A stretch of 64,000 bases of DNA. Origin: a virus. Its lineage: Duplodnaviria > Caudoviricetes. The translations under genes were made by a program, and so were the position numbers. Below, piece by piece: positions 1,666-16,405 of this stretch; the stretch's first letter is position 1; each line of letters opens with the position of its first letter. The stretch spans positions 1 to 64,000 of IMG/VR virus record IMGVR_UViG_3300030372_001977. One strand, given 5' to 3'. The notes under the pieces are model-generated. The model did no database searches, was not told the DNA's origin, and saw nothing but the letters and a program-made list of their open reading frames with translations.

Positions 1666-2124
1666 CTATATTACTTTATATTTTGTTTTATTATTCTCAT
1701 CTTTATATGCAAGTAAACATCTGTTTCTATTTTTTTCATCAGAAACATAACTTACATGAACCCATGCAGGATTTTCTTCATCTCCAAACTCCCAGATTAA
1801 CTGGTCAAAACTTAAGTTATTTTTTATAAACTCATACATTTCAGCATTGCTAGATCTCCCAAAAGTGTCATCTATATCTATAGCTTGGCCTTTACAATGT
1901 TGTGATTTAGAACTTCCTCCTATAGCAGTATTTAATTCTTCACACCTAAAAAAACTATTTATTTTTATAGGTCCACCTACATAAGATCTTAAAGGTTCAA
2001 ATATCTGTCTAGCTATCATTTTCATGTTATATAGCTGTTTATCATTTGGTACATTTTTTATACCTCTTCGAGTAGCAGTATTACTATGCACTGCTTCTTT
2101 ATCACTTATATGTCTACTAATCAT
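1666..2124 (-). CDS. peptidase M15A family (Zn D-Ala-D-Ala peptidase fold), probable endolysin
   Basis: SFFRC...N.AIGGS.KSQHCKGQAIDI and WVHVSY motifs (H-x6-D...H zinc ligands). Confidence 0.85.
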   Translation of the reverse strand: MISRHISDKEAVHSNTATRRGIKNVPNDKQLYNMKMIARQIFEPLRSYVGGPIKINSFFRCEELNTAIGGSSKSQHCKGQAIDIDDTFGRSSNAEMYEFIKNNLSFDQLIWEFGDEENPAWVHVSYVSDEKNRNRCLLAYKDENNKTKYKVI

Positions 2125-2899: not shown

Positions 2900-5818
2900 T
2901 TATTTATTAATTTTTATTTTTCTAATTACACTACCATCACTATATAAAAATAACAGAGGTGTATTATCTATAATTTTATCTACTGGTCTTCCTAATAAAT
3001 CTGTAATCATTATTAAAGTTTTATCTCCTCTTTTAAGTAAAGGACCAGACCAAGTGCCTTCACAATAGTTATAAGTTAACTGGCATATTGTATCCCATGC
3101 ATTCTCACAACAGTATTCATCTACATCTATTACCCAAGCATAGCATGGATCATTTAACCAATAAGGCTCACCCGGGCTGCCAATACAACCAGCATCGAAA
3201 AGACAAGAAAGACTATCATTAACATTAGCAAGTATATTATAATTATAGGCAGACGGATCCATACACCCTTCAACCACAGTAATACACGAACCGTTGTCAG
3301 TATTAGCTGTCGAATCATAATTAAGAGCAGTACTGTCCATACAACCATAAATGAAAGGAATACAACTAAAATCTTCTGTATTTGCTTGCGCATTATAATT
3401 AAGAGCGTTAGGGTCAGTACAACCGTAAATAAAAGGAATACATGAATTGTTGTCAACATTTGCTAAAGGATTATAATTAAACATAGTACTATCAGTACAA
3501 CCATAAATAGGTAATATACAACTAAAGTCATCAGTATTGCAAGTATCGCAATAATTTAGAGCTATAGGATTAGTACAACCATATATAAAAGGGATACATG
3601 TCCCATTGTCTGTATTAGCTGAAGGATCGTAGTTAAACATAGTAGCATCTGTACATCCATAAGAAAACTCTATACAAGAACCATTGTCTACATTAGCTAA
3701 TGGATTATAATTATACATTGTAGGATTCATACATCCAATTACAACAGGAACGCAAGAACCGTCATCAACATTAGCATTTACATTATAATTAAATGCTGCC
3801 GGATCAGTACAACCATAAGTAACCCCTATACAACTTCCATCATCCGTATTTGCTAATGGATCATAATTAAAAGCTATAGGGGACGTACAGCCATACACGA
3901 CTTGAATACAAGTATCAGGTGTATTAGCTTGCGCATTGTAATTAAAAGCTAATGAATTCATACATCCTAATACTACCGGTATGCATCCGCCATTATCTAC
4001 GTTGGCTGCACTATTATAATTAAAAGCTGTAGAATCTGTGCATCCAAACACAGCTAAAATATTACAACTTCCATTATCTACATCTGCTACAAAACCTTGT
4101 GTGTAGTACTCTAAATAGCCTGGATTAGTACACCCTGGATTATAATAACAGGTATCAGTTGTATTTGCTGTATCATTATAATTATAAGCTAACGAGTCTA
4201 AACATCCATAAACTACATCCACACACTCAGTACCACAGTAAGGCAAAGCAGAATATATGTCCTCTGGGTTTTTAAAGTTTTTTAATTTATTTTCATTAGG
4301 TCCTGGCCAAGGATTATCACCTTCATGTAATATAACTCCGTATGCATTTTCTAACTTAAATGAATTTTGTATTGTTTGTATATCTAACTGCTGCGCATTC
4401 TGTTGTTGTGTAGGAACCTCAAAATAATATATATAAACCTCTTCATACGAGCTTAATGATAAGTTAAACGTATCAGAATAAATATTGTTTGAGTCTATCC
4501 TAAACTGCCACAATGAAGTACCTTGTCTTACCCCTAACCAACAATTACCCCAGCTATCACCACCTGCATCATATAATATTAAATTATAATCACAAGGTGA
4601 AGTTAATTCCATTCTGTGTGCTGCCGGGTCATAATTAAAAGCAGCTGGGTCTATACAACCGTATAATGCTATTGTACTACAGCTACCATCATCAATTGTA
4701 GCTAACTCATTGTACTCTACATAATCTTCATCTGTACATCCTAATACAGGAGTATTGCTATCACAAGTATCAGCTACATAAGAAGCTGAAGAAGCACTAA
4801 ACCCAAAGTTAGGTGGATTTAAATTAAATATAGTATCAAAACAATCTAGATTAGTTACCATACAACTACCCACTACAGAGCCACCCCCTATACCATCACC
4901 GTAAGTATCATTTATAGTAAATACAATAGTATCACCAATAGGCACACATACTTCTGTATAAACTGTTTGTCCTGTTTGTGTATAGTCATAAGTGCCAGAT
5001 GGTACAGTATATATTATATTACCATTAGCTTCTATTTCCCAAGACGTTTCACCTGGCCAGTTATCTAGAAGTATTGCAACCTCTATTAATGATTGTCCAG
5101 GATTACAAATAACTTCCATTACACATGTACCATCATCTATATTAGCCCAGGGATTATAGTTTTCTGCTAAAGGGTTCATACACCCGTTAACATATATACA
5201 CCCTACATTTATTGTTGCAGTAGAGTCATAGTTTGGAGATATGCTGTCCATGCATCCAGGTATTATAGCATATGGATCACTAACCATTATATCATCAATA
5301 CATATATCACTAGTATAACTAGTACCTGTATTCCCTATAAATGCAATTTTAAAATTATGTTGCATATTAAGACTATCTAACGGATAGTAACCAAGATTCC
5401 AATTCATACCTTGATCTCCATTGTAAGCATCTATAAATACGTAGTTACCCATTACATCTATAGCTGCTATTTCTAACTCACCCATTGCAGGTCCAAACAT
5501 ATGATACCAGAAAGATAACACTCTCCCGTAAGTAGCAGATACATCAAAAGTTGGTGTATACGTTATAAACTGCTTACTAGGAAAATTAGGATTAGATGAT
5601 TCAACATAAAAATATACTCCATTACCCGTAGTATGATCTCCTTGTGGACCAGTATTAAAAGAAGGAGTTGACCCTATTTTTAATAACCAATCTCCATCAT
5701 CGGTAGTATCTTGTTGTAGTGGAAAATTATTTTCAAAGTTATGAACCCAAGGAAAAGTATTTATTTGTCCTACTCCTATAAAAGGTATCAACAATAATAT
5801 ATATAATAATTTTTTCAT
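2900..5818 (-). CDS. exported MAM-domain, Cys-repeat protein with T9SS-type C-terminal sorting domain
   Basis: Signal peptide MKKLLYILLLIPFIGVG|Q; MAM domain (GPQGDHTTGNGVYFYVESS, LSFWYHMFG, DICIDDI); 17 GC(T/M)D..A.NY...A..DDGSC repeats; C-terminus ITDLLGRPV...LFLYSDGSVIRKIKINK resembles flavobacterial T9SS type-A CTDs. Confidence 0.8.
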   Translation of the reverse strand: MKKLLYILLLIPFIGVGQINTFPWVHNFENNFPLQQDTTDDGDWLLKIGSTPSFNTGPQGDHTTGNGVYFYVESSNPNFPSKQFITYTPTFDVSATYGRVLSFWYHMFGPAMGELEIAAIDVMGNYVFIDAYNGDQGMNWNLGYYPLDSLNMQHNFKIAFIGNTGTSYTSDICIDDIMVSDPYAIIPGCMDSISPNYDSTATINVGCIYVNGCMNPLAENYNPWANIDDGTCVMEVICNPGQSLIEVAILLDNWPGETSWEIEANGNIIYTVPSGTYDYTQTGQTVYTEVCVPIGDTIVFTINDTYGDGIGGGSVVGSCMVTNLDCFDTIFNLNPPNFGFSASSASYVADTCDSNTPVLGCTDEDYVEYNELATIDDGSCSTIALYGCIDPAAFNYDPAAHRMELTSPCDYNLILYDAGGDSWGNCWLGVRQGTSLWQFRIDSNNIYSDTFNLSLSSYEEVYIYYFEVPTQQQNAQQLDIQTIQNSFKLENAYGVILHEGDNPWPGPNENKLKNFKNPEDIYSALPYCGTECVDVVYGCLDSLAYNYNDTANTTDTCYYNPGCTNPGYLEYYTQGFVADVDNGSCNILAVFGCTDSTAFNYNSAANVDNGGCIPVVLGCMNSLAFNYNAQANTPDTCIQVVYGCTSPIAFNYDPLANTDDGSCIGVTYGCTDPAAFNYNVNANVDDGSCVPVVIGCMNPTMYNYNPLANVDNGSCIEFSYGCTDATMFNYDPSANTDNGTCIPFIYGCTNPIALNYCDTCNTDDFSCILPIYGCTDSTMFNYNPLANVDNNSCIPFIYGCTDPNALNYNAQANTEDFSCIPFIYGCMDSTALNYDSTANTDNGSCITVVEGCMDPSAYNYNILANVNDSLSCLFDAGCIGSPGEPYWLNDPCYAWVIDVDEYCCENAWDTICQLTYNYCEGTWSGPLLKRGDKTLIMITDLLGRPVDKIIDNTPLLFLYSDGSVIRKIKINK
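3200..4212 (-). repeat. 13 tandem ~26-aa (~78-nt) GCTD/GCMD cysteine repeats (coding)
   Basis: Directly visible in the translation: YGCLDS, PGCTNP, FGCTDS, LGCMNS, YGCTSP, YGCTDP, IGCMNP, YGCTDA, YGCTNP, YGCTDS, YGCTDP, YGCMDS, EGCMDP. Confidence 0.9.
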
Positions 5819-5943
5819 TTTTGATTTTTCTTAGTACAACATTTTTTTGTTTCTTTTGTACAAACTTCTTTGTTTAAAGAGCACCCTTGTAAAAAAAGCA
5901 CAATTAATATAAGTCTTATTGACAACAGCAATTTTCTCCACAT
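5815..5943 (-). CDS. small lipoprotein (42 aa), not in the ORF track
   Basis: Hand translation MWRKLLLSIRLILIVLFLQG|CSLNKEVCTKETKKCCTKKNQK; lipobox-like LQG-C; its TGA overlaps the ATG of the 972-aa gene (ATGA). Confidence 0.65.
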   Translation of the reverse strand: MWRKLLLSIRLILIVLFLQGCSLNKEVCTKETKKCCTKKNQK

Positions 5944-6005
5944 ACTCCTACACAAATTGTTCCAAAAGTTATTTTACATATTAATTTACAAATTATTTTT
6001 TTCAT
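5916..6005 (-). CDS. 29-aa cysteine-rich micropeptide, not in the ORF track
   Basis: Hand translation MKKIICKLICKITFGTICVGVCGENCCCQ (7 Cys); A-rich leader AAAAACT before the ATG; fills the gap after the 6018 stop. Confidence 0.55.
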   Translation of the reverse strand: MKKIICKLICKITFGTICVGVCGENCCCQ

Positions 6006-6017
6006 AGTTTTTATTTT

Positions 6018-6350
6018 TTAAAAGTCACTCATTAGTATATTATCTATTTCTTCTTGTACCTCTTCTTTTGTTGCTTGCATTTTAAAACTTAAATCAGCTT
6101 GAAATCTAGCAACCTCTTCACCATCTTTAAATATAATAATAGTAGGTACAACAGCTATTTTATATTTTTGTGCAGACTCTGTATCTTTACTTATATCTAC
6201 AATACCTTTAGTACTACAGTCTTTAAGATCCATAAACCAAGATACACCATTTGCACTATTCCAGCCAGCATTAAAATGCTTTGCTGTTACTTGTCCAAAA
6301 ACTCCTACAGAGTATAACATAGACAATAAGATAATTATATATTTTTTCAT
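6018..6350 (-). CDS. exported thioredoxin-fold protein lacking CxxC
   Basis: Signal peptide ending VFG|QV; HFNAGWNSAN in place of F.A.WCxxC; cis-Pro motif VVPTIIIFKDGEEVARF typical of the thioredoxin fold. Confidence 0.75.
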   Translation of the reverse strand: MKKYIIILLSMLYSVGVFGQVTAKHFNAGWNSANGVSWFMDLKDCSTKGIVDISKDTESAQKYKIAVVPTIIIFKDGEEVARFQADLSFKMQATKEEVQEEIDNILMSDF

Positions 6351-6631
6351 TATCTATTATATAGTTTATCCTCTATTTTTTCAAGAGTTTCTTTTATTTC
6401 TTCAACATCAGATTGTGTTGTCATAATTGTGTTACGAATCATCTGATCTTTCATATCAAATTCCATACGTGTAACATCTGGAGGTAATGGTTCTGGTAAT
6501 TGTTTTGCTTCTTCTATATCAGCTTGTAAAGCAAACCACATACCCACAACAGTAGCAATTGCAAATGCAATGCCTATAAGTGTTTTAATACTTACTTTAA
6601 ATGCCGTGTCTTCGTTTAACTCTTTTGCCAT
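6350..6631 (-). CDS. single-pass membrane protein with C-terminal coiled coil (start re-assigned to MAKELNEDT)
   Basis: TM segment TLIGIAFAIATVVGMWFAL; ATG at 6631 overlaps the upstream TAA (TAATG), so the track start at 6688 is probably too long. Confidence 0.7.
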   Translation of the reverse strand: MAKELNEDTAFKVSIKTLIGIAFAIATVVGMWFALQADIEEAKQLPEPLPPDVTRMEFDMKDQMIRNTIMTTQSDVEEIKETLEKIEDKLYNR

Positions 6632-6840
6632 TATCTTCTTAATATCATTTCTGTTAGCAGCCCTCCAATAGCTGTAAATACCGCCCATAAACCAATTCTA
6701 GTATTTTTCCTAAAACTAGTATTTTTATTAATTCTAACTACTAACCCATCTTCTGGGTCTAATAAACGTAGTTTAATATCTTTTACATCTTGTCTTAAAT
6801 CTTGTAGCTCCTCGTGTAATTGTTGATTAGTTATTTTCAT
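6631..6840 (-). CDS. small coiled-coil protein with C-terminal TM helix (holin/hemolysin XhlA-like architecture)
   Basis: Heptads LHEELQDLRQDVKDIK, then TM IGLWAVFTAIGGLLTEMIL. Confidence 0.55.
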   Translation of the reverse strand: MKITNQQLHEELQDLRQDVKDIKLRLLDPEDGLVVRINKNTSFRKNTRIGLWAVFTAIGGLLTEMILRR

Positions 6841-6989
6841 ATTTCAAATCCAAAGTTTAATATTATACATCTGTGTTCTACGCCTGGATTGCAATACAAT
6901 TCTAAAATTGTAAATCTCCCAAACCTAACTGTAACTTCATATATATTGTCTTTTTTATTACCTTGTCTCCAACTATTTATCCAATTCAT
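6837..6989 (-). CDS. 50-aa hypothetical protein, not in the ORF track
   Basis: Hand translation MNWINSWRQGNKKDNIYEVTVRFGRFTILELYCNPGVEHRCIILNFGFEI; ATGA overlap with 6840; fills the intergenic gap exactly. Confidence 0.7.
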   Translation of the reverse strand: MNWINSWRQGNKKDNIYEVTVRFGRFTILELYCNPGVEHRCIILNFGFEI

Positions 6990-6992
6990 AAT

Positions 6993-7361
6993 TTATCTTT
7001 TACCGCCATCATATTCTACTGCATGGCCTTCTTTAATTAATAATTCATTTACGCTTTCTAAAGTCATTTTTTCTTTGCCATCTACAACATCAATATGCAA
7101 CTCTCCTAAAACTCTCCCATACTTTCCAACACCATGTGAGTTTAATTTTATTGTATTAGCTCCTTCTAACAATTGTTTAACTCTATCTTTAGCAGCTAAA
7201 CCTCTAGCTTTTTCTTCTAAATCTCTAGTTCTTGATTCTGGAGTATTAATCCCCATAAATCTAATTCTTTTTTTAGTTGAGATGTCAAATCCTAAATCAA
7301 TTTCAGCATCAATAGTATCTCCATCAACCACCCTATCTAATTTTATTTTGTAGGTATACAT
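6993..7361 (-). CDS. thermonuclease (staphylococcal nuclease-like)
   Basis: RVVDGDTID, RFMGINTPES, GKYGRVL motifs. Confidence 0.9.
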   Translation of the reverse strand: MYTYKIKLDRVVDGDTIDAEIDLGFDISTKKRIRFMGINTPESRTRDLEEKARGLAAKDRVKQLLEGANTIKLNSHGVGKYGRVLGELHIDVVDGKEKMTLESVNELLIKEGHAVEYDGGKR

Positions 7362-7363
7362 TA

Positions 7364-8497
7364 TTAAAATATTATATAATTAACACCAAACTTAAAATCA
7401 TACCACTCTCTGTTCCAATATTTATTATACTTACCTTCTACAAAGTATCCTAAATGTTTATCTATTTTTATACCATATATTAAACCTGCAGAGTAATCAT
7501 ACCACTGTTCTCCATTATTATATTTATGATAAGAAAACTCACCACCGTCATCATAATGCCAAGGCAATAGATTACCCCAAGCATGCAGCCATCTTTTTTT
7601 AGTATATTTATAATAATCAAATCCTATAATTATAGAATGTTGTATTTGTTTTGACAACTCATTTCTTTTCTTTTCAGAATAGTCAGCTAACACTTGTGGT
7701 ATAACAACTTCTTTCCAAACCTCAGAACTGTTAGCAACAATATTACCACTAGGATCTCTATACTCACTATTAGCAACATCTACAGTATAACCTTCTTGTA
7801 TAGCTAAATATGTATAATGTAAATTCCCATTACCTAACATCCATTCTTCTAGCGGATTATATCCATATGGTTCTGCTAATCTATGAGCAGCCCCTATACT
7901 AAAAGATAAATCTCTATCTTTTTTCCATCTATATCTTTCTGATAATTCAAAATATTCTACATCTGCAAAACCATCTTTTAAATATTCTACTTTTGCTGCA
8001 AAGTGATCTACACAAAGCGGACCATCACAGTCATCATCAGAACTATATCTTATAAAATGATGTTGATCTATATAATCTACACCTTGTTGTCTTGCATAAT
8101 CTACTTCAAATAAGTATTCAAAACCTTGTACTTTACCTACTGTAGCTGCATCTGTATAATTAGATTCAGTCCCATCATAAAAAGTGTTAGCTCTATTTTC
8201 ATATCCAAACCTAGCTATTTTTCTAATACCTACAGTTAAAGAGTAGTCATAAGGAGTTGTAATAAGACCTTCTTCTAATTGTCCTTGAGTAACAGAAAAT
8301 GTTTTTACATCTGATACTGAAGTACCTCCATTTACAGCTCCATATACTGTAGCAAACTTAGTATGACTTTTTAATGTTTCTATTAAGTCAAATGTTTTTA
8401 AATAATCTTTTATATCTGCAGTAGTTTGTGAATTAGCTGATAAACCAATACACAATACAAATAGTAGTAGTATGTTTTTTATTTTATTCATTATCAC
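7364..8497 (-). CDS. putative outer-membrane beta-barrel protein
   Basis: Signal peptide ...LCIGLSANS|Q; many amphipathic Tyr/Phe/Trp-rich strands; C-terminal beta-signal-like YDFKFGVNYIIF ending in Phe. Confidence 0.7.
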   Translation of the reverse strand: MIMNKIKNILLLFVLCIGLSANSQTTADIKDYLKTFDLIETLKSHTKFATVYGAVNGGTSVSDVKTFSVTQGQLEEGLITTPYDYSLTVGIRKIARFGYENRANTFYDGTESNYTDAATVGKVQGFEYLFEVDYARQQGVDYIDQHHFIRYSSDDDCDGPLCVDHFAAKVEYLKDGFADVEYFELSERYRWKKDRDLSFSIGAAHRLAEPYGYNPLEEWMLGNGNLHYTYLAIQEGYTVDVANSEYRDPSGNIVANSSEVWKEVVIPQVLADYSEKKRNELSKQIQHSIIIGFDYYKYTKKRWLHAWGNLLPWHYDDGGEFSYHKYNNGEQWYDYSAGLIYGIKIDKHLGYFVEGKYNKYWNREWYDFKFGVNYIIF

Positions 8498-8738: not shown

Positions 8739-9581
8739 TTAATCCCATGTATTTTGATCTGATGGAGTATCTGTAACCCAACTCCAAGAATTACCAAGTC
8801 CACCTTCAACTCCACTTGCTGCTGCTGCACCAGTAGCACTGTTATTAATACTGGTACCAGACCCTGCTTCCATCTTTCCGTACCAAACTAAATTAGCTGC
8901 TTTATCATAAGTTCCATAATTACTTGATATATCATAAGGCACACCATCATTAAATATTCCATTTACATCATTTTGATCTAATAAAATATTAAAAATTGCT
9001 ACTTCATCAACCATTCCATCATAAAATAATTCACCATTAGTATCATTACTCATATCAGCACCAATTGCTACTGGAGTAGACGCAGTACTGTGATATACTA
9101 TAGTTGCTTCTTCAGCTGCTGAACCGGTACTTACTCCTGTAGTTTTAGTATTCCAATATAAATACAAGGTTCCAGCAACATCATAGGTAAAAACAATATG
9201 AACCCAATTATTTAATGCTTCGGTTTTAGATTCATTTAAAGCAGCTGTAATATATCCTGCACTACCACTACCATCATTACTAACCCTAAGAGTCACCTCT
9301 AATGTTGTAACTTGACTTCCAGTATTTTTTAAAGATAGTTTCCACCCTCCAGTTCTAAGACATCCTATTACAACATCTTCATCTGAACCGGTTGTCATAT
9401 CCCAAGTATTAGGTTTCATCCAAAGAGATACACCTAAAGCATTTACTGGCTTTAGAGCGTCATCCTCTAATATCTTTATAAAGTCAGCAGCACCGTCAAA
9501 TTCTACAGCGTACTGACTGTATTTAGACTGTATATAGTCTGGTTTACTTGTAGCTATTCCTAATCCTAATTGAGGCACCAT
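8739..9581 (-). CDS. LamG / concanavalin-A-like lectin domain virion protein
   Basis: SLWMKP, WVHIVFTYD...LYLY, FYDGMVDEVAIFNILLDQNDV, LVWYGKMEAGSGT motifs. Confidence 0.85.
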   Translation of the reverse strand: MVPQLGLGIATSKPDYIQSKYSQYAVEFDGAADFIKILEDDALKPVNALGVSLWMKPNTWDMTTGSDEDVVIGCLRTGGWKLSLKNTGSQVTTLEVTLRVSNDGSGSAGYITAALNESKTEALNNWVHIVFTYDVAGTLYLYWNTKTTGVSTGSAAEEATIVYHSTASTPVAIGADMSNDTNGELFYDGMVDEVAIFNILLDQNDVNGIFNDGVPYDISSNYGTYDKAANLVWYGKMEAGSGTSINNSATGAAAASGVEGGLGNSWSWVTDTPSDQNTWD

Positions 9582-9582
9582 A

Positions 9583-9936
9583 CTATGACGGATCTGCAGT
9601 TGGTTCTTTAGCTTCTCCTTTAACTCCTTTAGAATATGCTAATATTTTACCACTGGTTAATTGTATACATTGAAAATCAGAATATATAGTCATACCTTTA
9701 GGAACTGTAAAATCTGTTTCTACATCTCTTTTAACTCCTGATGCAAATTCTATAATTCCAGTATTTCCTTCACTTACATCAATGACAGAATCTTCTATTG
9801 CTGATATAGCATAAAAAGGTCCGCAATGTCTTATATTATTAATTATAATTGTTGTAAAAGATTGATAAATTGTTACTGTATTAACTTTTCTAGTTTCTTC
9901 ACAACAGCATAATTCTTGTGTACGTACTCCACCCAT
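9583..9936 (-). CDS. hypothetical small beta protein
   Basis: FYAISAIEDSVI...FTVPKGMTIYSDFQCIQLTSGKILAY; tightly packed in the operon. Confidence 0.65.
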   Translation of the reverse strand: MGGVRTQELCCCEETRKVNTVTIYQSFTTIIINNIRHCGPFYAISAIEDSVIDVSEGNTGIIEFASGVKRDVETDFTVPKGMTIYSDFQCIQLTSGKILAYSKGVKGEAKEPTADPS

Positions 9937-10349
9937 TATTTTATTATTTTTATTAAGTTATTAATTTGTTTAGCTGTAATCTCTTCAGGTAAAATATTTT
10001 CTTTAAGAATATTAAGTTTTACTTCAATTTCTTCCTCCATCATTTCTTTTACCTTATCCATTTGAGTTCTTCTTTCATCTACTAACTTTTTATTTTCTTC
10101 TTCTAATTTATTTATTTTTTCTTTAGAATCTTCTGTATTAAGATTAGCAAGTTGATTTACTTCTGATGCTAGCTTCATAAATTCTTCAGAAGGTTTACCT
10201 GCCTCTTCTAATTCTTTAAGTGATTTTTGAAGAATAACAATATTTTTACTTACTGTTAAACTAAACTCTTTTCCTTTTAATTCTTGAACCGAAAATAATC
10301 CATTAATTATATTTACGAATTCTCCTTTTGTTGCTTTAATTGTTGTCAT
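9936..10349 (-). CDS. coiled-coil protein, possible tail-fibre assembly chaperone
   Basis: Lys/Glu-rich helical protein directly after a fibre gene. Confidence 0.5.
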   Translation of the reverse strand: MTTIKATKGEFVNIINGLFSVQELKGKEFSLTVSKNIVILQKSLKELEEAGKPSEEFMKLASEVNQLANLNTEDSKEKINKLEEENKKLVDERRTQMDKVKEMMEEEIEVKLNILKENILPEEITAKQINNLIKIIK

Positions 10350-10373
10350 TTTATATATTGGTTTTTGTTAATA

Positions 10374-11828
10374 TTAACTATTGTTTATCACTAAAAAGTG
10401 AATTTTGTGTGCGTTTGTAGACACATTGCCCGCCCCAGGATTACTTAATCTAACATTAAATGATCCAGCATTTACCTCATCAAGCTGAGCTACTAATGTA
10501 GCATTGTCTGTAGCACTTGCTGCTGCAGGACACTGAACAGTTAATAATATAACTGAATCTGCCTGAACAGTACTATTTGTAACAGCAAAATCTGCTTCTG
10601 CCGCTGCGTTTAAACCTACTCCTGCTAATGTAATAATACCAGATGTTGCATTAATTGTAACTCCTGTACTATGATTAGTACCTTGAGTAACCGTTCCACT
10701 ACCAGCATGTATAATTCCTTTAGTTGCTTCAGTTATCTGTAAATTACCTACATCAATTGAAAAATCTGGATTTGCTGATCCTCCTGACAATGTTGTTCCT
10801 CCAATAGCATTACCAGCCCCATCATATACATAGTTTCTAATACTACCTGCTGAACCTCCAGCCTCATTACCTCCATATATAGCTACAGCTCCACCATCAC
10901 CTCCACCAGAAGCTGCTGAACCTGCTTTTAAAATTAAATTTCCAGCACTACCTGAAGCACTACTTCCTCCTTCAATTGTAAGTACTTGCCCAACCGTATC
11001 ACTTGTTGTAGCGCTTGGTTTAATTGTAGGTGCGGTATCATTAGTAAATCTAATACTACCTTTTATATTTAAACTTTCATCAAATGCTGCTGTAGGAGTA
11101 GATTGCCCTACAAACACTTTACCACTATTATCAACTGCAATTCCTTCGTCTGTTCCATCTCCAGAAATCCATCCATCCCCATTATTAGTATCTATATTAT
11201 AAGTAGTTCCAGTGCCATCGTACAAATCTACATTTGCTGTTGCATTTGCTATAGTTGCATTTATTGTTATACTTCCGGCACCGTTTGTAATTGAAACTCC
11301 TGTTCCAGCAGTAAGTGTTGCTAAACTAGGAACTCCAGTTGTAGCATTACCTATAAGCACTTGTCCGTTTGTACGCATTGATGCAGTAGCGGCAATTGTA
11401 TCATCTGCACTAGCATAAAGAACTGATCCTTTTACTATTGTATCTAAACCTGTACCACCATTTACCACTGGGCATTGCCCTGTAACATTTCCAGTAAAAT
11501 CCATAGAAGTTAAAAATCCAGCTGAAGTATTACTACAATTAGCTAAATCTATACCAGATTCTACTAAAGTTAGTAATATATTATTAGTATCTGTAGTTGC
11601 TGTTAATTTAGTTGTGTCTGCAGACTTTATACCTTTAAAGTTTAATTGATTTTTATTTGTAACACTTACAAATATATCTTGTCCTCCAGTACCAGTAGTT
11701 GACATTGTAGGAAAAAAGCCTGAAGCTAGAACTTTTTTTGCAGCTCCAGTAGACTCATTAGATATATTAAAATAGTCATATGTGTTATCTATGCTAGTTT
11801 TTGCTAAAGTTTGTAAATTTAAAGCCAT
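10374..11828 (-). CDS. tail fibre protein
   Basis: Gly/Thr/Ala-rich; PVVNGGTGL, NGQVLIGN, TLTAGTGVSITNGAGSITI fibre repeats. Confidence 0.75.
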   Translation of the reverse strand: MALNLQTLAKTSIDNTYDYFNISNESTGAAKKVLASGFFPTMSTTGTGGQDIFVSVTNKNQLNFKGIKSADTTKLTATTDTNNILLTLVESGIDLANCSNTSAGFLTSMDFTGNVTGQCPVVNGGTGLDTIVKGSVLYASADDTIAATASMRTNGQVLIGNATTGVPSLATLTAGTGVSITNGAGSITINATIANATANVDLYDGTGTTYNIDTNNGDGWISGDGTDEGIAVDNSGKVFVGQSTPTAAFDESLNIKGSIRFTNDTAPTIKPSATTSDTVGQVLTIEGGSSASGSAGNLILKAGSAASGGGDGGAVAIYGGNEAGGSAGSIRNYVYDGAGNAIGGTTLSGGSANPDFSIDVGNLQITEATKGIIHAGSGTVTQGTNHSTGVTINATSGIITLAGVGLNAAAEADFAVTNSTVQADSVILLTVQCPAAASATDNATLVAQLDEVNAGSFNVRLSNPGAGNVSTNAHKIHFLVINNS

Positions 11829-11869: not shown

Positions 11870-14800
11870 TTATTTTTGTTTCCATGCAGGTGGTATATTA
11901 CAATCTTTACAGTATTTATTTACAAATTTAAGAAAATTATCGTAATAATTCACACTTGTAGTTATATCTATAAAATTCTCATCTGAACATTTGGTCCAAT
12001 TCCCACCAGCTATTCCAGTCGCTGTTTCTGGATTATTGTCTTTTAAGTCAAAAGTAAGTGGGCCTACTTGATTAAAAGATATACTTACAACTCTATATAT
12101 ATACCCACTAGGCATTTTAATAACATCTCCTAAACTAAGCTTGTGCGGAGATGTAAAATATAAAGCAGGATCAGTAACTGTAGTTCCCTCTCCTGTTGTC
12201 CAAGAAGTTCCTGTAACACTAGCTCCATTTGTTGCAGCGTCATTTAAACCTGTAAAAGATCCTCCTTTTACCCATAAGTCGTTACAATTAAGCGCTACAT
12301 CTTCTATATTAGGAGTTCCTTTATCAGCGCAATTAAATAAACACCCTAAACCAAAACCATTTTCACTTTTATTAGATTTTAATACATACCCCAATAATAT
12401 TAATTTCCATTTATTCATTGTAGAACAATCTATATTTGTACCTATTTTATATTCTGTTAGCCATTCAGATCCTTTTTGAGATAAACAAGATTTTAATTTA
12501 ACTATTGCTTTTTTTAATTGTTTTGGTATACAAGGATTTTTTTCATCTCTATATAAACAACTGCCATCGTCAATAATTGCATTTGGGTTATAGTTTATAG
12601 CAAGTGGGTCTGTACAACCTTCGTATATACAAGAACCATCATCGCATGAAGCATTAGGGTCATAGTTAGATGCCAACGGATCTGTACATCCAACTGATAA
12701 AGTAGTAGTAGATATAGAAAATGTTTGCTCTACTTTACAACCAAAAAGGTCTGTAAATGTAATAGTGTAAGCTCCCGGAGCCAATCCTGAATGTGTAATT
12801 GTAGAACCATCAGGAGCAGGTGTAGGAGATACATCAGGGACATACGAATATATTAAATTTGCACTTACAGGAAGTCCAGAATAAATCTGAATTAAAAAAT
12901 GTGTAGATCCGTTTGTAGATGCATATTTAAAAGTTACTGTTCCATCTGCGATTGGTCCCGTACACGTACCCGTAGAATCTGTTGTAGTTACTGTTATATC
13001 AGGAGGACTATCACAAGGAAATTCACAACAATCTGGATCATGAACAGTTGCACTAGGAATGTCTATACCACAATCACAGCTATATTCATAGTTTGATGCC
13101 CCAGAATCTAAACATGCTTTATATTCACAAGTACCATCGTCTGTATCAGCAGCTGGATCATAATTAATTGCACAAGGATCTGTGCATCCTGGTATAGGCA
13201 TTGGCACACAACTTTGCTCGCAATCTACTAAACTGCTATATTGACCTGTACCATCTCCTGGATCATAACAAGAACCTGTTACAAGATCACATTCCCAAGA
13301 TTCATATATACAAGGTCCTGGACATAAAGCGTTTGGATTATAATTTAAAGCTGCTGGATCAGGGCACCCAGAATCAGGGACTCCATCAAAAACAAAATCT
13401 TGTGTATAAACACAAATACTACCATCAGGCATGTCTACATATACTTCCTGAGTATAAGTACCTGCCCCAAGTACTTGAAGTGGTGACATAGAATTCCAAA
13501 ATGGATCAAACACCATTAGCTGAGAATGACCAAATCCCACTCCATTGGCATTAATTGGGCTAGTATGACCCACACCATAACCAGATATATCATTTGCTGT
13601 CCCAGAACTATTTTGATTAGGGTGAGCAACTCCATTAAAAAGCCAAACTACTGTAAAATAACCTGGACCAAAATGGCCCGGTCCAATCGTTCCAGGACCA
13701 CAACCAGGAGAATCATACAAAGCGAAATGCCAATGCAAATATGGATTACATTCATTAGCTCCATTTGAGTTTTGACCCCCTCCTCCATTACAATTAGTAA
13801 ACCAATAGTTAGGATCGTCAGAAAGTTCAAAAGAATGATCTGACGGGACCGGACAGTTACTAGGAGTACATAAACTTGAGTCTGGAATTCTAAAAGGTGC
13901 TGCTACTGTTGTGTTATAGTCTGAAGAATTAACATCATCACAAACCGGAACTTTTACTGTAATATATACCCAAGTAAAACACTCTTCTGCTTCTAAAACA
14001 TTATTTGAATCAACAAACTGTATTTTAATAGCATAGTGACCAAAACCCAGACCTGTAAAAGTATGCTGAGGAGAGTAACTAAAAGTATTTGATGCTATTC
14101 CTGTTTGCTGACTAATAACCGATCCTATTGTGCTAGGATCTCCAGGTACTGTAACTGGATATATCCCCATTGTATAAGTCTCAGTAGCACCAAGGCTTAT
14201 ATATTGTTGTAAAGCAGGGTCTATGCTTGTTGTTAAAGAAACAGTACCATCAGATTGTGGAACATTACTTGCATTTACAGTTGCATCAGTAACAAGAGCT
14301 ACATGATTAGTAAATAAATCTCCTGCAATATTTCCTGCAGGATCTTCTAATTTTCCAGTAGTAGCATTACACACAACGCATGAACCATCATCATTAACTG
14401 CTGAGGCGTCATAATTTATTGCTGTATTGTCTGTACACCCGTCTGGAACAGCACAATCAGCTAAAGTTATATGTAATGTTTTTTCACACCCATCTTCATC
14501 TGTAACTTTTAAAATATAATACGTTCCTAATAATGCCCCTTCATTAGGAGCAAGACTTCCAAAGTAAAATCTAAAGCCAGCTGCAAAAGTTAAAGTTACT
14601 GTAGCGGCTGCTGTTGCTTGAACAGTATTTCCTACAGCATCTATAAGTGTAAATTTTGTTACATTGTTACCTGCTGTCCCAGTTAAAATATTACCAACAT
14701 AAGTTCCAGCTGGTATTCCTGCCCCACTTACTTGCATCCATGGTGTAATAGTGCTGCTAGAAGGACAAGTAACTTCATGTTCTGTTCCACTTGTTGTATT

Positions 14801-16405
14801 TGTTACACAGTTAGCTTGAGTAACTGTATTTCCTCCTGTTGGAGGCATAGTTTGGGTTAAACTGTTTCCATTACTTAAAGTTAAGTTATAGGTATACTGA
14901 CTACCACTACTCCATGGATTTCCTGTAGTAGTAGTACTAGTCCACGCAGGATTTGTAGTTGTAACTTCAATAATTTTATCATTTACACCATAAGTTCCAC
15001 AATGTGGAGTAGTAGATACTATTTCTAAAGTACAATTTGAACAACAAGCGTTATTAGGAACAAAAGTAGTAATGTTATGATTTGCTCCTCCTGGTAAATT
15101 AGCTGCTGGAATAGTTGCTCCACTACAATCTTTACTAGTTGTTAAATAGTATGAGGGATCACCAGCTTCATCACAAACATTAAACACGTGAAGAGGATTA
15201 GGAGGCGCAGGAGCTGTTAAATTTTCTGCATAAAATATTTTATATACATAATGATAGTGTGGGCTATTAGAAGTGTCTGCACCTCTTGTAGCTAACTCGT
15301 AAGCTGAATTCCAAGTCATTATATTATCACCAAAGGAATCCCACACCTCTGATCTTCTATACAGATTTCTTATATCTATTCCCGGATCAATAGGTGAAGG
15401 CTCAACACTACCATAAGGCGGAACAGGCCAGTTATCTCCAGAATAAGTTCCTTGCATAAAGCCAAGGTTTGAATTCATTTGATTTATTATGTTTGGAACG
15501 TTCATTAAAACACCTCCTTGTGTTTCTAGATTGTCATACCATAAAGGATTATTTTCTTGTAAAAGAAAATCTATAGAGTGAAATTCTTGTCTATTAGGAT
15601 TACCCGCATCAGGAGTAGTAAGAGCATTTAACCCATATATATGAGCAAGTCTATCATCATGACCAGAAATCGTACCTCCAGAACCACAAAAACCATGATC
15701 GTAAAGTACATTATTAACATCAGACTTTACATGTAAAAACTGCTCTGATGGTGTAAAGCCTGGATTTGTATTTACCCCTATAGTGTTTGCATGAACTCCA
15801 CTATATTTTGAAAATATATAAAAAGGCTCAGTTACTAATAATCCAGAAACTGTAAGACTACCTGCAACTCCCTTATTTTGAGATTGTAAAGAATAAAAAT
15901 TATTCACAGGAAGACCAGTAGCAGGATCTATAGCCGCATTTAAATGTGTATTGTAATAACCTTGTTGAAAATAAGACTCTGAACTTGAGCCTGGCTGGTT
16001 TGCTAATTCAACCAAATCCATAATAAACCAAGGACTGTTTAAACCATCGTGGTGTGCCTTTATGGTCATAGGTATTTCAAAATACTCAATATGACCACTT
16101 GTAAATGTAAGTTTTAATGTTCTTATTGAAACTATAGTAGTTATAGGAGTAAATGGGGGTAAATATTTTAGCGTAAAAGTTTGCCCTGGAGTTCCTCCAA
16201 TAGAATTTAGTTGTATTAAAGGTGCATTACCATCTCCAGTTGTATCTGCTACATCTACTAAAAAATCCCACCCTGTTCCACTAGCCTTATTATCATGTAC
16301 CTGAATTTCAGGCATCTCTGGTCCGCCATACAGCCCATTTACACCTAGTAGTACACCCCAAAATTTAGGAGGATGAGAAGATATAGTAACAAGTCTTTTA
16401 GACAT
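11870..16405 (-). CDS. large Cys-rich tail/structural protein with GCTD repeats
   Basis: 1511 aa, no signal peptide; about 6 GCTD..A.NY repeats, Ig/SprB-like segments (ITFTDLFGC), helical C-terminus; follows the ring-protein genes. Confidence 0.6.
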   Translation of the reverse strand: MSKRLVTISSHPPKFWGVLLGVNGLYGGPEMPEIQVHDNKASGTGWDFLVDVADTTGDGNAPLIQLNSIGGTPGQTFTLKYLPPFTPITTIVSIRTLKLTFTSGHIEYFEIPMTIKAHHDGLNSPWFIMDLVELANQPGSSSESYFQQGYYNTHLNAAIDPATGLPVNNFYSLQSQNKGVAGSLTVSGLLVTEPFYIFSKYSGVHANTIGVNTNPGFTPSEQFLHVKSDVNNVLYDHGFCGSGGTISGHDDRLAHIYGLNALTTPDAGNPNRQEFHSIDFLLQENNPLWYDNLETQGGVLMNVPNIINQMNSNLGFMQGTYSGDNWPVPPYGSVEPSPIDPGIDIRNLYRRSEVWDSFGDNIMTWNSAYELATRGADTSNSPHYHYVYKIFYAENLTAPAPPNPLHVFNVCDEAGDPSYYLTTSKDCSGATIPAANLPGGANHNITTFVPNNACCSNCTLEIVSTTPHCGTYGVNDKIIEVTTTNPAWTSTTTTGNPWSSGSQYTYNLTLSNGNSLTQTMPPTGGNTVTQANCVTNTTSGTEHEVTCPSSSTITPWMQVSGAGIPAGTYVGNILTGTAGNNVTKFTLIDAVGNTVQATAAATVTLTFAAGFRFYFGSLAPNEGALLGTYYILKVTDEDGCEKTLHITLADCAVPDGCTDNTAINYDASAVNDDGSCVVCNATTGKLEDPAGNIAGDLFTNHVALVTDATVNASNVPQSDGTVSLTTSIDPALQQYISLGATETYTMGIYPVTVPGDPSTIGSVISQQTGIASNTFSYSPQHTFTGLGFGHYAIKIQFVDSNNVLEAEECFTWVYITVKVPVCDDVNSSDYNTTVAAPFRIPDSSLCTPSNCPVPSDHSFELSDDPNYWFTNCNGGGGQNSNGANECNPYLHWHFALYDSPGCGPGTIGPGHFGPGYFTVVWLFNGVAHPNQNSSGTANDISGYGVGHTSPINANGVGFGHSQLMVFDPFWNSMSPLQVLGAGTYTQEVYVDMPDGSICVYTQDFVFDGVPDSGCPDPAALNYNPNALCPGPCIYESWECDLVTGSCYDPGDGTGQYSSLVDCEQSCVPMPIPGCTDPCAINYDPAADTDDGTCEYKACLDSGASNYEYSCDCGIDIPSATVHDPDCCEFPCDSPPDITVTTTDSTGTCTGPIADGTVTFKYASTNGSTHFLIQIYSGLPVSANLIYSYVPDVSPTPAPDGSTITHSGLAPGAYTITFTDLFGCKVEQTFSISTTTLSVGCTDPLASNYDPNASCDDGSCIYEGCTDPLAINYNPNAIIDDGSCLYRDEKNPCIPKQLKKAIVKLKSCLSQKGSEWLTEYKIGTNIDCSTMNKWKLILLGYVLKSNKSENGFGLGCLFNCADKGTPNIEDVALNCNDLWVKGGSFTGLNDAATNGASVTGTSWTTGEGTTVTDPALYFTSPHKLSLGDVIKMPSGYIYRVVSISFNQVGPLTFDLKDNNPETATGIAGGNWTKCSDENFIDITTSVNYYDNFLKFVNKYCKDCNIPPAWKQK

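Follow-up and report, generated by a model that had tools for sequence, protein, structure and literature searches.

Disruptins are cationic peptides that act at the outer-membrane (OM) step of lysis, and to our knowledge little has been described of how phages of Bacteroidota breach the OM. Two-component spanins such as lambda Rz/Rz1 (surveyed by Kongari et al. 2018, PMC6139136) join an inner-membrane transmembrane (TM) segment and a periplasmic coiled coil to an OM component, and about 15% of the phages of Gram-negative hosts (roughly one in seven) have no recognisable spanin according to a disruptin preprint (bioRxiv 10.1101/515445). In this study, we analysed positions 2900-8497, minus strand, of an 83.7-kb marine crAss-like phage (IMG/VR record IMGVR_UViG_3300030372_001977). 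The first 64 kb of the record (64,000 nucleotides) form the window, that is, the whole stretch of DNA analysed, and positions refer to it unless another locus is named. The genes are consistent with two units in a late/lysis block, namely a surface protein tagged for the secretion system of type IX (T9SS), hereafter the cargo, inserted beside a lysis-linked, envelope-spanning trio of an OM beta-barrel, a membrane protein (tm) and a thioredoxin-fold protein (Trx), which may substitute for spanins; we give this reading a probability of roughly 0.5.

The trio resembles a two-component spanin in pairing an inner-membrane TM segment and periplasmic coiled coil with an OM component, and in its location in lysis cassettes with endolysin and holin; in the cassettes of cargo-free relatives, no other spanin candidate was found. 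It differs in that its OM part is predicted to be a 14-stranded barrel, whereas an o-spanin is a small lipoprotein; it also adds an obligatory Trx-fold protein, has a tm periplasmic part much shorter than that of Rz and shows no sequence similarity to spanins. Searches of the literature found no barrel-based OM disruptor, and none is named in the abstract of the survey on spanins (PMC6139136) or in that of the preprint on disruptin (bioRxiv 10.1101/515445).

A phage-encoded T9SS cargo has been inferred once, as a type A cargo in 'Cryophage', and was termed a unique occurrence (Bellas et al. 2020, PMC7468147). Both that phage and ours are uncultured Bacteroidota phages with a variable secreted protein that carries a host sorting domain, and both proteins are proposed to alter what the infected cell displays. 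The two differ in that the tail of the window cargo is unseen by models of the T9SS C-terminal domain (CTD), the canonical domain being present in some orthologues only; in that the protein is a Cys-repeat, adhesin-like one here and a glycoside hydrolase there; and in that the window cargo belongs to the late/lysis genes of a crAss-like lineage abundant in the sea. PorV and PorP/SprF are also OM barrels of similar size encoded beside a T9SS substrate, but the phage barrel matches none of the NCBIfam or Pfam models, resembles generic OM barrels and occurs without a T9SS substrate. Phage genes for host OM barrels are represented by lambda Lom, the OM proteins (OMPs) of huge phages (bioRxiv 10.64898/2026.10.24.761521) and the cyanophage family PF24653. 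These belong to other families, however, and none has been described in a lysis cassette or with a linked coiled-coil membrane protein and dead thioredoxin; the huge-phage barrels were catalogued without such a trio or a link to lysis (bioRxiv 10.64898/2026.10.24.761521). An earlier reading made from the sequence alone (the sequence-only reading) had stated that no system of this composition was described, and this held for the literature and for 50,697 GenBank phage records.

Genes of the trio and the cargo

The sequence-only reading had described nine coupled minus-strand genes in the region. All of these open reading frames (ORFs) and their overlaps are present: neighbours share 4 nt at 6837-6840 and again at 5815-5818, and a single nt both at 6631 and at 6350. 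Signal peptides and membrane topology were judged from the sequence. The genes of the trio and the cargo are the following (a slash marks the predicted signal cleavage site):

7364-8497, minus strand: OM beta-barrel, 377 aa, trio member 1; signal ends NS/Q; AlphaFold2 (AF2) model
6350-6631, minus strand: tm protein, 93 aa, trio member 2; start MAKELNED, set by homologues (ORF as listed 6350-6688, 112 aa)
6018-6350, minus strand: exported thioredoxin fold (Trx), 110 aa, trio member 3; PF00085; AF2 model; signal ends FG/Q
2900-5818, minus strand: cargo, 972 aa; signal VG/Q, MAM domain, Cys repeats, CC..W.D..C module and a tail of ~40 aa

The three signal peptides ending VG/Q, FG/Q and NS/Q were seen just as that reading had described them. 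Of the genes, most of which it had predicted to enter the host envelope, the barrel, Trx and cargo carry signals, whereas a nuclease and a 50-aa protein of the region (listed with the accessory genes below) have no export signal.

Linkage of the trio and its lysis context

In 80 IMG/VR relatives, the barrel, tm and Trx always occurred together; the tm-Trx order was fixed, and the barrel stood before or after the tm-Trx-cargo block. Distant barrel homologues (25-45% identity) from unrelated phage backbones were taken with their flanks. Among 101 barrel loci, tm and Trx were present in all 52 that extended 3.5 kb or more to either side of the barrel, and they were absent only at contig ends. Conservation of the neighbourhood across related phages, by which the sequence-only reading had proposed to be judged, was therefore found for these three genes (52/52), which do not recur together by chance. 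As judged from gene neighbourhoods, these results showed the barrel, tm and Trx to be an invariably linked set, independent of the cargo.

The complete trio occurs without cargo in lineages L165, L166, L173-176 and L179-184. The gene order in L165, L166 and L173-175 is tm, Trx, barrel, M15 endolysin (phrog_894, 1.9e-36) and holin (phrog_3427, 5.5e-22), and in L179 it is barrel, tm, Trx, a 44-aa basic protein, M15 endolysin and a holin-like gene. In L180-184, the place of the endolysin is taken by a DUF5675/Tlde1-like protein, and L177/178 have a 2-TM holin-like gene, a cargo that ends in a true CTD, then barrel, tm, Trx and a PG_binding_1+Amidase_2 endolysin. The trio directly adjoins the endolysin in L165, L166, L173-175 and L177-184, and in most of these the holin as well. 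Lysis cassettes are usually recognised by a constant set of neighbours beside non-homologous cell-wall hydrolases; since the trio lies beside three non-homologous endolysin types, the gene orders point to its membership of such cassettes. In this phage, the trio lies within ~4 kb upstream of the endolysin, and the holins are further on:

1666-2124, minus strand: endolysin, Peptidase_M15_3, 152 aa (phrog_894, 1.8e-30; PF08291, 1.6e-15), outside 2900-8497, in the same late/lysis block
83102-83655 of the record (L186:19102-19655), outside the window: holin (phrog_3427, 4.8e-32) and a 2-TM holin-like gene

Synteny with L001 placed the holin and the 2-TM gene directly after the window gene 22-492, that is, with the ends of the record joined. 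The contiguous order in L001 is barrel, tm, Trx, cargo, two small genes, endolysin, fibre-like gene, 156-aa gene, 2-TM gene and holin. Because this phage has a separate holin (phrog_3427), the 93-aa tm protein is not the holin. Crude lipobox scans of the cargo-free cassettes revealed no o-spanin-like lipoprotein in or beside the tm gene, and one lipobox ORF, out of frame inside the barrel gene, was taken as chance.

These gene orders also bear on the explanation offered by the sequence-only reading, in which the barrel is a PorP/SprF- or PorV-like partner of the cargo, Trx is a folding helper and the cassette remodels the surface of the infected cell. Consistent with it, the barrel, tm, Trx and cargo stand together in 30/33 fully flanked crAss-like loci, the distance from Trx stop to cargo start is usually -10 to +3 nt, an exported Cys-repeat protein accompanies the trio in L167-172 and L177/178, and the cargo itself contains many Cys (51). 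However, the trio is complete in the cargo-free lineages named above, the barrel may lie on either side of the tm-Trx-cargo block and is unmatched by PorV, PorP/SprF and PorQ models at E<=1, no Trx member has a redox Cys pair, and the N-terminal domain of the cargo is variable. A cognate barrel and folding helper are therefore not supported; no other alternative agrees so poorly with the lineages that lack the cargo, and we consider it unlikely.

Several further genes were observed beside the trio in these relatives. The DUF5675 protein, located at L180:8930-9406 and L182:8765-9244, has a weak match to Tlde1 (an L,D-transpeptidase-like effector) and is a candidate for an endolysin type not described before. 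A conserved, very basic protein of 42-46 aa (..KRKG[VI]HSK.KS....YKGQGK) is encoded in cargo-free cassettes at L165:4559-4696, L166:9854-9994 and L179:8825-8959, with the same type at L180:8795-8923 and L181:2111-2242; it may be either a membrane-active peptide of the disruptin kind or a protein that binds nucleic acids, and no protein of this type was found in the window. In L167-172 (65-168-kb contigs, positions ~9170-10930), the trio is followed by a 308-328-aa lipoprotein with the Cys repeats of the cargo and no CTD, then by two proteins with signal peptides, one of 68-71 aa and one of 186-196 aa; the latter ends in ...FQFKVGLGVKL and may be a second, small barrel.

The barrel protein

We modelled the 377-aa protein with AF2 from a 30-sequence alignment (pLDDT 78.8, pTM 0.72). 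The model has 14 strands, with a conserved helical and hairpin insert of ~75 aa (209-283) and a C-terminus reading ...NYIIF. The top matches in the PDB were all OM or mitochondrial barrels, including OmpG (Z 11.2, rmsd 5.5, 201 aligned), Tsx (Z 10.3), the TamA barrel (Z 9.8), NanC (E 4.6e-6) and autotransporters; among the matches listed, FadL/TodX-type barrels scored Z 7.0-7.8 and chains of the Bacteroidota beta-barrel assembly machinery (BAM) complex Z 7.3-7.6. With its signal peptide, 14 modelled strands and C-terminal aromatic residue, the protein is predicted to be an OM beta-barrel. The model and the PDB matches agree on the barrel that the sequence-only reading had proposed for 7364-8497. 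OM lipid hydrolases (OMPLA, LpxR) matched at Z 9.2-9.3, no better than porins, and the idea of a hydrolase was dropped, the conserved S288, H305 and D334 not being neighbours by hairpin register in the model.

Searches with the barrel gave no match in Pfam (E<=0.1), NCBIfam (E<=1) or PHROG, the PorV, PorP/SprF and PorQ models included. A weak Atlas lead to the cyanophage OMP PF24653 (0.93 with 150 shared features) was not accompanied by an HMM match and is a lead only. Grouped at 90% identity, the family comprised 3898 clusters, and grouped at 50% it comprised 305. Two of 401 Flavobacteriales genomes contained it, with very strong scores (E 1e-102 and 1e-124), as expected if these are binned phage contigs and not diverged cellular homologues. 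None of five metagenome-assembled genomes (MAGs) of candidate hosts carried it, and four different queries found none in the GenBank phage records. The family is thus essentially phage-only.

The insert (209-283) and a disordered segment (90-111) are among the most conserved parts of the barrel, which bears on another explanation: that the trio serves to exclude superinfecting phages, mask receptors or stabilise the envelope, like lambda Lom, T5 Llp or Cor, and is found near the lysis genes as morons are. Phage OM barrels are common, Lom has been reported to block a receptor (bioRxiv 10.64898/2026.10.24.761521), and the region is rich in variable accessory genes, all of which would suit such a module. 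An exposed, contested surface would be expected to vary, however, and here the insert and segment 90-111 are highly conserved; moreover, the trio stays linked at 25-45% identity across unrelated backbones, with and without cargo, unlike morons, and its genes lie in the late block of lytic-type genomes. An exclusion module is accordingly a minor candidate in our view, rather improbable on this balance.

The tm protein and Trx

The start of the tm protein was fixed at the ATG at 6631 by 70 distinct homologues, giving 93 aa. It has a short N-terminus, one TM segment (29-47 of the 112-aa ORF), a Pro-rich linker and a conserved, heptad-like periplasmic coiled coil of ~45 aa. So far as topology can be read from the residues, this is the layout of an i-spanin, which crosses the inner membrane once, N-in, and has its coiled coil in the periplasm. 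An alignment (A3) spans lineages at 34-47% identity. In metagenomes, 7999 of 8000 scored candidate clusters at 90% identity matched, all unnamed, so that the family has at least 7999 of them; the GenBank phage records (50,697) contained none. In L167-172, tm is longer (223-247 aa) because of an additional cytoplasmic domain at its N-terminus; an MshEN-like domain considered for the 224-aa variant was rejected, there being no Pfam match.

Trx scored 23.6 bits against PF00085, at the border of the cut-off (23.5). Its AF2 model (pLDDT 86) gave 273 PDB matches at E<=0.001, the top ones being thioredoxins (TM 0.59-0.65). The active site reads GWNSAN in place of WCGPC, and the cis-Pro (VPT) is kept. 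In an alignment of 16 members (A4), none has CxxC, and P69, T70, G77 and the C-terminal F110 are invariant. The absence of CxxC from every member indicates that the protein is not a thiol-disulfide oxidoreductase. Trx therefore shares the fold and cis-Pro loop of thioredoxin (PF00085) and differs from it in having a Sec signal, no CxxC and an invariant C-terminal Phe. PF00085, the model and the alignment agree with the CxxC-less exported thioredoxin fold recognised by the sequence-only reading and support a predicted exported, redox-dead protein.

The tm gene always lies directly upstream of the Trx gene, with a 1-nt overlap here. This constant order and adjacency, together with the separate true holin of the cassettes, would fit a role in the timing of lysis, in which a periplasmic Trx-fold sensor acts on a membrane protein by analogy with the T4 RI antiholin on holin T. 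Such a role leaves the invariably linked OM barrel unexplained, and neither protein has sequence similarity to RI, RIII or T; we regard it as improbable.

The cargo and its sorting tail

The cargo begins with MKKLLYILLLIPFIGVG/Q, a Sec signal by sequence that follows the Q-rule of Bacteroidota. It contains a MAM domain (PF00629, 5.5e-19), 51 Cys and 16-17 GC..NY..DDGSC units, and it ends in a tail of ~40 aa (LIMITDLLGR...LFLYSDGSVIRKIKINK). The cargo was present in 30/33 fully flanked crAss-like loci, with a variable N-terminal domain that is MAM in 4/30. All 46 cargo homologues listed carry a cleavable Sec or lipoprotein signal and a C-terminal sorting tail, as do 30/30 in the fully flanked set, and the leader is of the lipoprotein type in some relatives.

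Neither the whole protein nor its last 99 or 199 residues alone matched the T9SS CTD models TIGR04183/PF18962 at E<=1 to 10. Orthologues nevertheless end in a TIGR04183/PF18962 CTD in L059 (38.6 bits) and L063 (34.9 bits; cut-off 23) and in L177 (50.2 bits; cut-off 27). Searched against longer proteins, the last 99 residues found phage relatives only, and the bacterial carriers of the tail came from a genome scan. Scanning one genome per prokaryotic species with a tail profile gave 290 matches, and the best 80 were nearly all from uncultured marine Flavobacteriales/Bacteroidota MAGs; in all of these 80 the motif lies 6-9 residues from the stop, and their complete ORFs begin with a signal peptide. 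The bacterial carriers include metalloproteases, esterases/PHB depolymerases, an ExeM-like nuclease, choice-of-anchor B proteins and an Omp28-like protein. In five tail-bearing MAGs (1.2-2.4 Mb), the short tail was counted 8-53 times per genome and the canonical CTD 32-90 times, and SprA (SprA_N) is encoded in four of them.

The swapping in of a canonical CTD by orthologues and the presence of the same tail on host enzymes suggest that the short tail is a host sorting tag, and its route through the T9SS is proposed because of that swap. It looks like an unannotated class of sorting signal of T9SS-bearing marine Flavobacteriales. The T9SS-like CTD claimed by the sequence-only reading is thus upheld only in part: the window tail fails the CTD models, whereas three orthologues pass them and host enzymes bear the tail. 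If the tail is such a signal, each genome of these small marine Flavobacteriales has 8-53 secreted proteins bearing it that current T9SS models miss.

Viral Por_Secre_tail clusters in the Atlas (0.83-0.84) are leads only. The consensus of the tail in the MAG loci L082-L161 and G001-G005 is L.K..D.LGR......N.PLFYIYDDG[TS]VEKKIII. A 745-aa cargo homologue with a CC..W.D..C module and the short tail was observed in L122, a 120-kb contig labelled as a Rickettsiales MAG; it is probably a misbinned piece of a phage genome.

The 972-aa protein might instead be a virion or tail-fibre component. Its gene lies among tail-fibre-like genes, and the GC..NY..DDGSC repeat is common to the cargo and a 1511-aa tail-region protein (11870-16405). 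The likeness to this tail protein stays at the level of the shared motif, with 28% identity overall, and the export signal and sorting tail found on all 46 listed homologues speak against a virion protein, which we consider very unlikely.

Following from its signals, the cargo would be exported by Sec to the periplasm of the infected cell, fold there with many disulfides and pass the host T9SS under the direction of its tail, to be displayed on or released from the surface late in infection. The variable N-terminal domain, MAM here, would act on a ligand of the surface or the environment. Late in infection, lytic marine phages could in this way feed surface proteins of their own into the secretion system of the host, which would bear on receptor masking, aggregation and particle attachment.

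A possible role of the trio in lysis

The reading that we favour, a T9SS-tagged surface protein beside a lysis-linked trio, would spread the trio over the inner membrane (tm), the periplasm (Trx) and the OM (barrel). Once the peptidoglycan is gone through the action of holin and endolysin, the trio would link or destabilise both membranes, replacing spanins. That the trio acts at the OM step of lysis is a real possibility, with at best an even chance. We suggest only tentatively, as something we doubt more than we believe, that barrel, tm and Cys-free Trx form a three-layer machine in phages of marine Flavobacteriales, a third kind of OM disruptor besides spanins and disruptin, with the barrel at its core, in thousands of ocean phage lineages, the abundant marine crAss-like phages among them. 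Situated in the lysis cassettes of very abundant ocean phages, the trio is a concrete candidate for how the OM of Bacteroidota is breached.

Several points weigh against this reading. The barrel and tm are known only from uncultured phages. Morons and exclusion genes also typically adjoin lysis genes, and in this phage the cargo and two small structural-looking genes separate the trio from the endolysin. The periplasmic part of tm (~55 aa) is short for a rod spanning the periplasm. An OM barrel needs BAM-dependent assembly, unlike a lipoprotein o-spanin. Curated T9SS CTD models miss the tail of the cargo, whose T9SS dependence is accordingly inferred. Finally, the basic 42-46-aa protein of some cargo-free cassettes could be the OM disruptor instead.

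The phage and its late gene block

The record is 97% complete and listed as linear in IMG/VR, and the GC content of the window is ~31-33%. Its terL, portal and major capsid protein (MCP) genes are on the minus strand and of crAss type (phrog_6681, 2.1e-136; phrog_6547, 2e-125; phrog_11589, 6.7e-89). The terL product is 38-42% identical to those of Crassvirales, and 159 records matched, Flavobacterium and Cellulophaga phages among them. On the basis of terL, portal and MCP, the element is a phage of the Crassvirales kind. The presumed hosts are uncultured marine Flavobacteriales, a group to which the short tail of the cargo points. A phage of a Bacteroidota-type host, as the sequence-only reading had recognised, is thus supported by the crAss-like genes and the host-type tail. 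Near-identical DNA was present in marine metagenome runs from 12 studies (2014-2025).

The region lies at the distal end of the late gene array, 3' of tail/fibre-like genes and 5' of the M15 endolysin, and synteny of the relatives showed it to be a hot spot of variable accessory genes. Two paralogous small beta-rich proteins (start MATL..) are encoded between the cargo and the endolysin, at 2130-2489 and 2520-2888, and their copy number varies in relatives.

Accessory genes

The remaining genes of the region are as follows:

6993-7361, minus strand: SNase-type endonuclease, 122 aa (PF00565, 1.5e-10; phrog_452, 8.8e-39)
6837-6989, minus strand: conserved hypothetical protein, 50 aa, no TM segment or signal peptide; homologues in relatives; accessory
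6631-6840, minus strand: tail-anchored membrane protein, 69 aa, with an N-terminal coiled coil and a C-terminal TM segment at residues 49-67 (hydropathy); accessory
5916-6005, minus strand: 29-aa peptide with seven Cys (K.ICKLICKITFG.IC...CC), a sporadic accessory micro-ORF
5815-5943 (or 5955), minus strand: micro-lipoprotein with lipobox LQGC, whose mature part (~22 aa) is rich in Cys and Lys; its stop codon and the start codon of the cargo overlap in ATGA

All five of these genes are variable accessories, and the nuclease does not belong to the envelope set. The SNase family occurs in 25/80 related loci at a variable position. The gene resembles endonuclease genes of T4-like cyanophages, at 68-75% at the DNA level over ~130-165 nt, which suggests that it is mobile or often exchanged among marine phages. 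Homologues of the 50-aa protein are encoded in 28 of the 80 loci, often adjoining the endolysin, and the 69-aa membrane protein, for which Pfam and PHROG searches gave no family assignment, in 20 of them. Look-alikes of the 29-aa Cys peptide at the protein level were found at the matching position in L052, L057 and L063. The micro-lipoprotein is sporadic among relatives and has a look-alike in L057.

A lipobox leader with a Cys-rich SC...K.CC[SG]Q stretch was also observed in place of a plain signal on the cargo in L002, L027 and L063 and on the barrels at L001:7989-9134, L015:8010-9110 and L023:7908-9026, and it forms the free micro-lipoprotein in the window (5815-5943) and L057. This leader ends in Q at the point where a plain signal would be cleaved, which allows two readings, a lipoprotein or a long signal for signal peptidase I.

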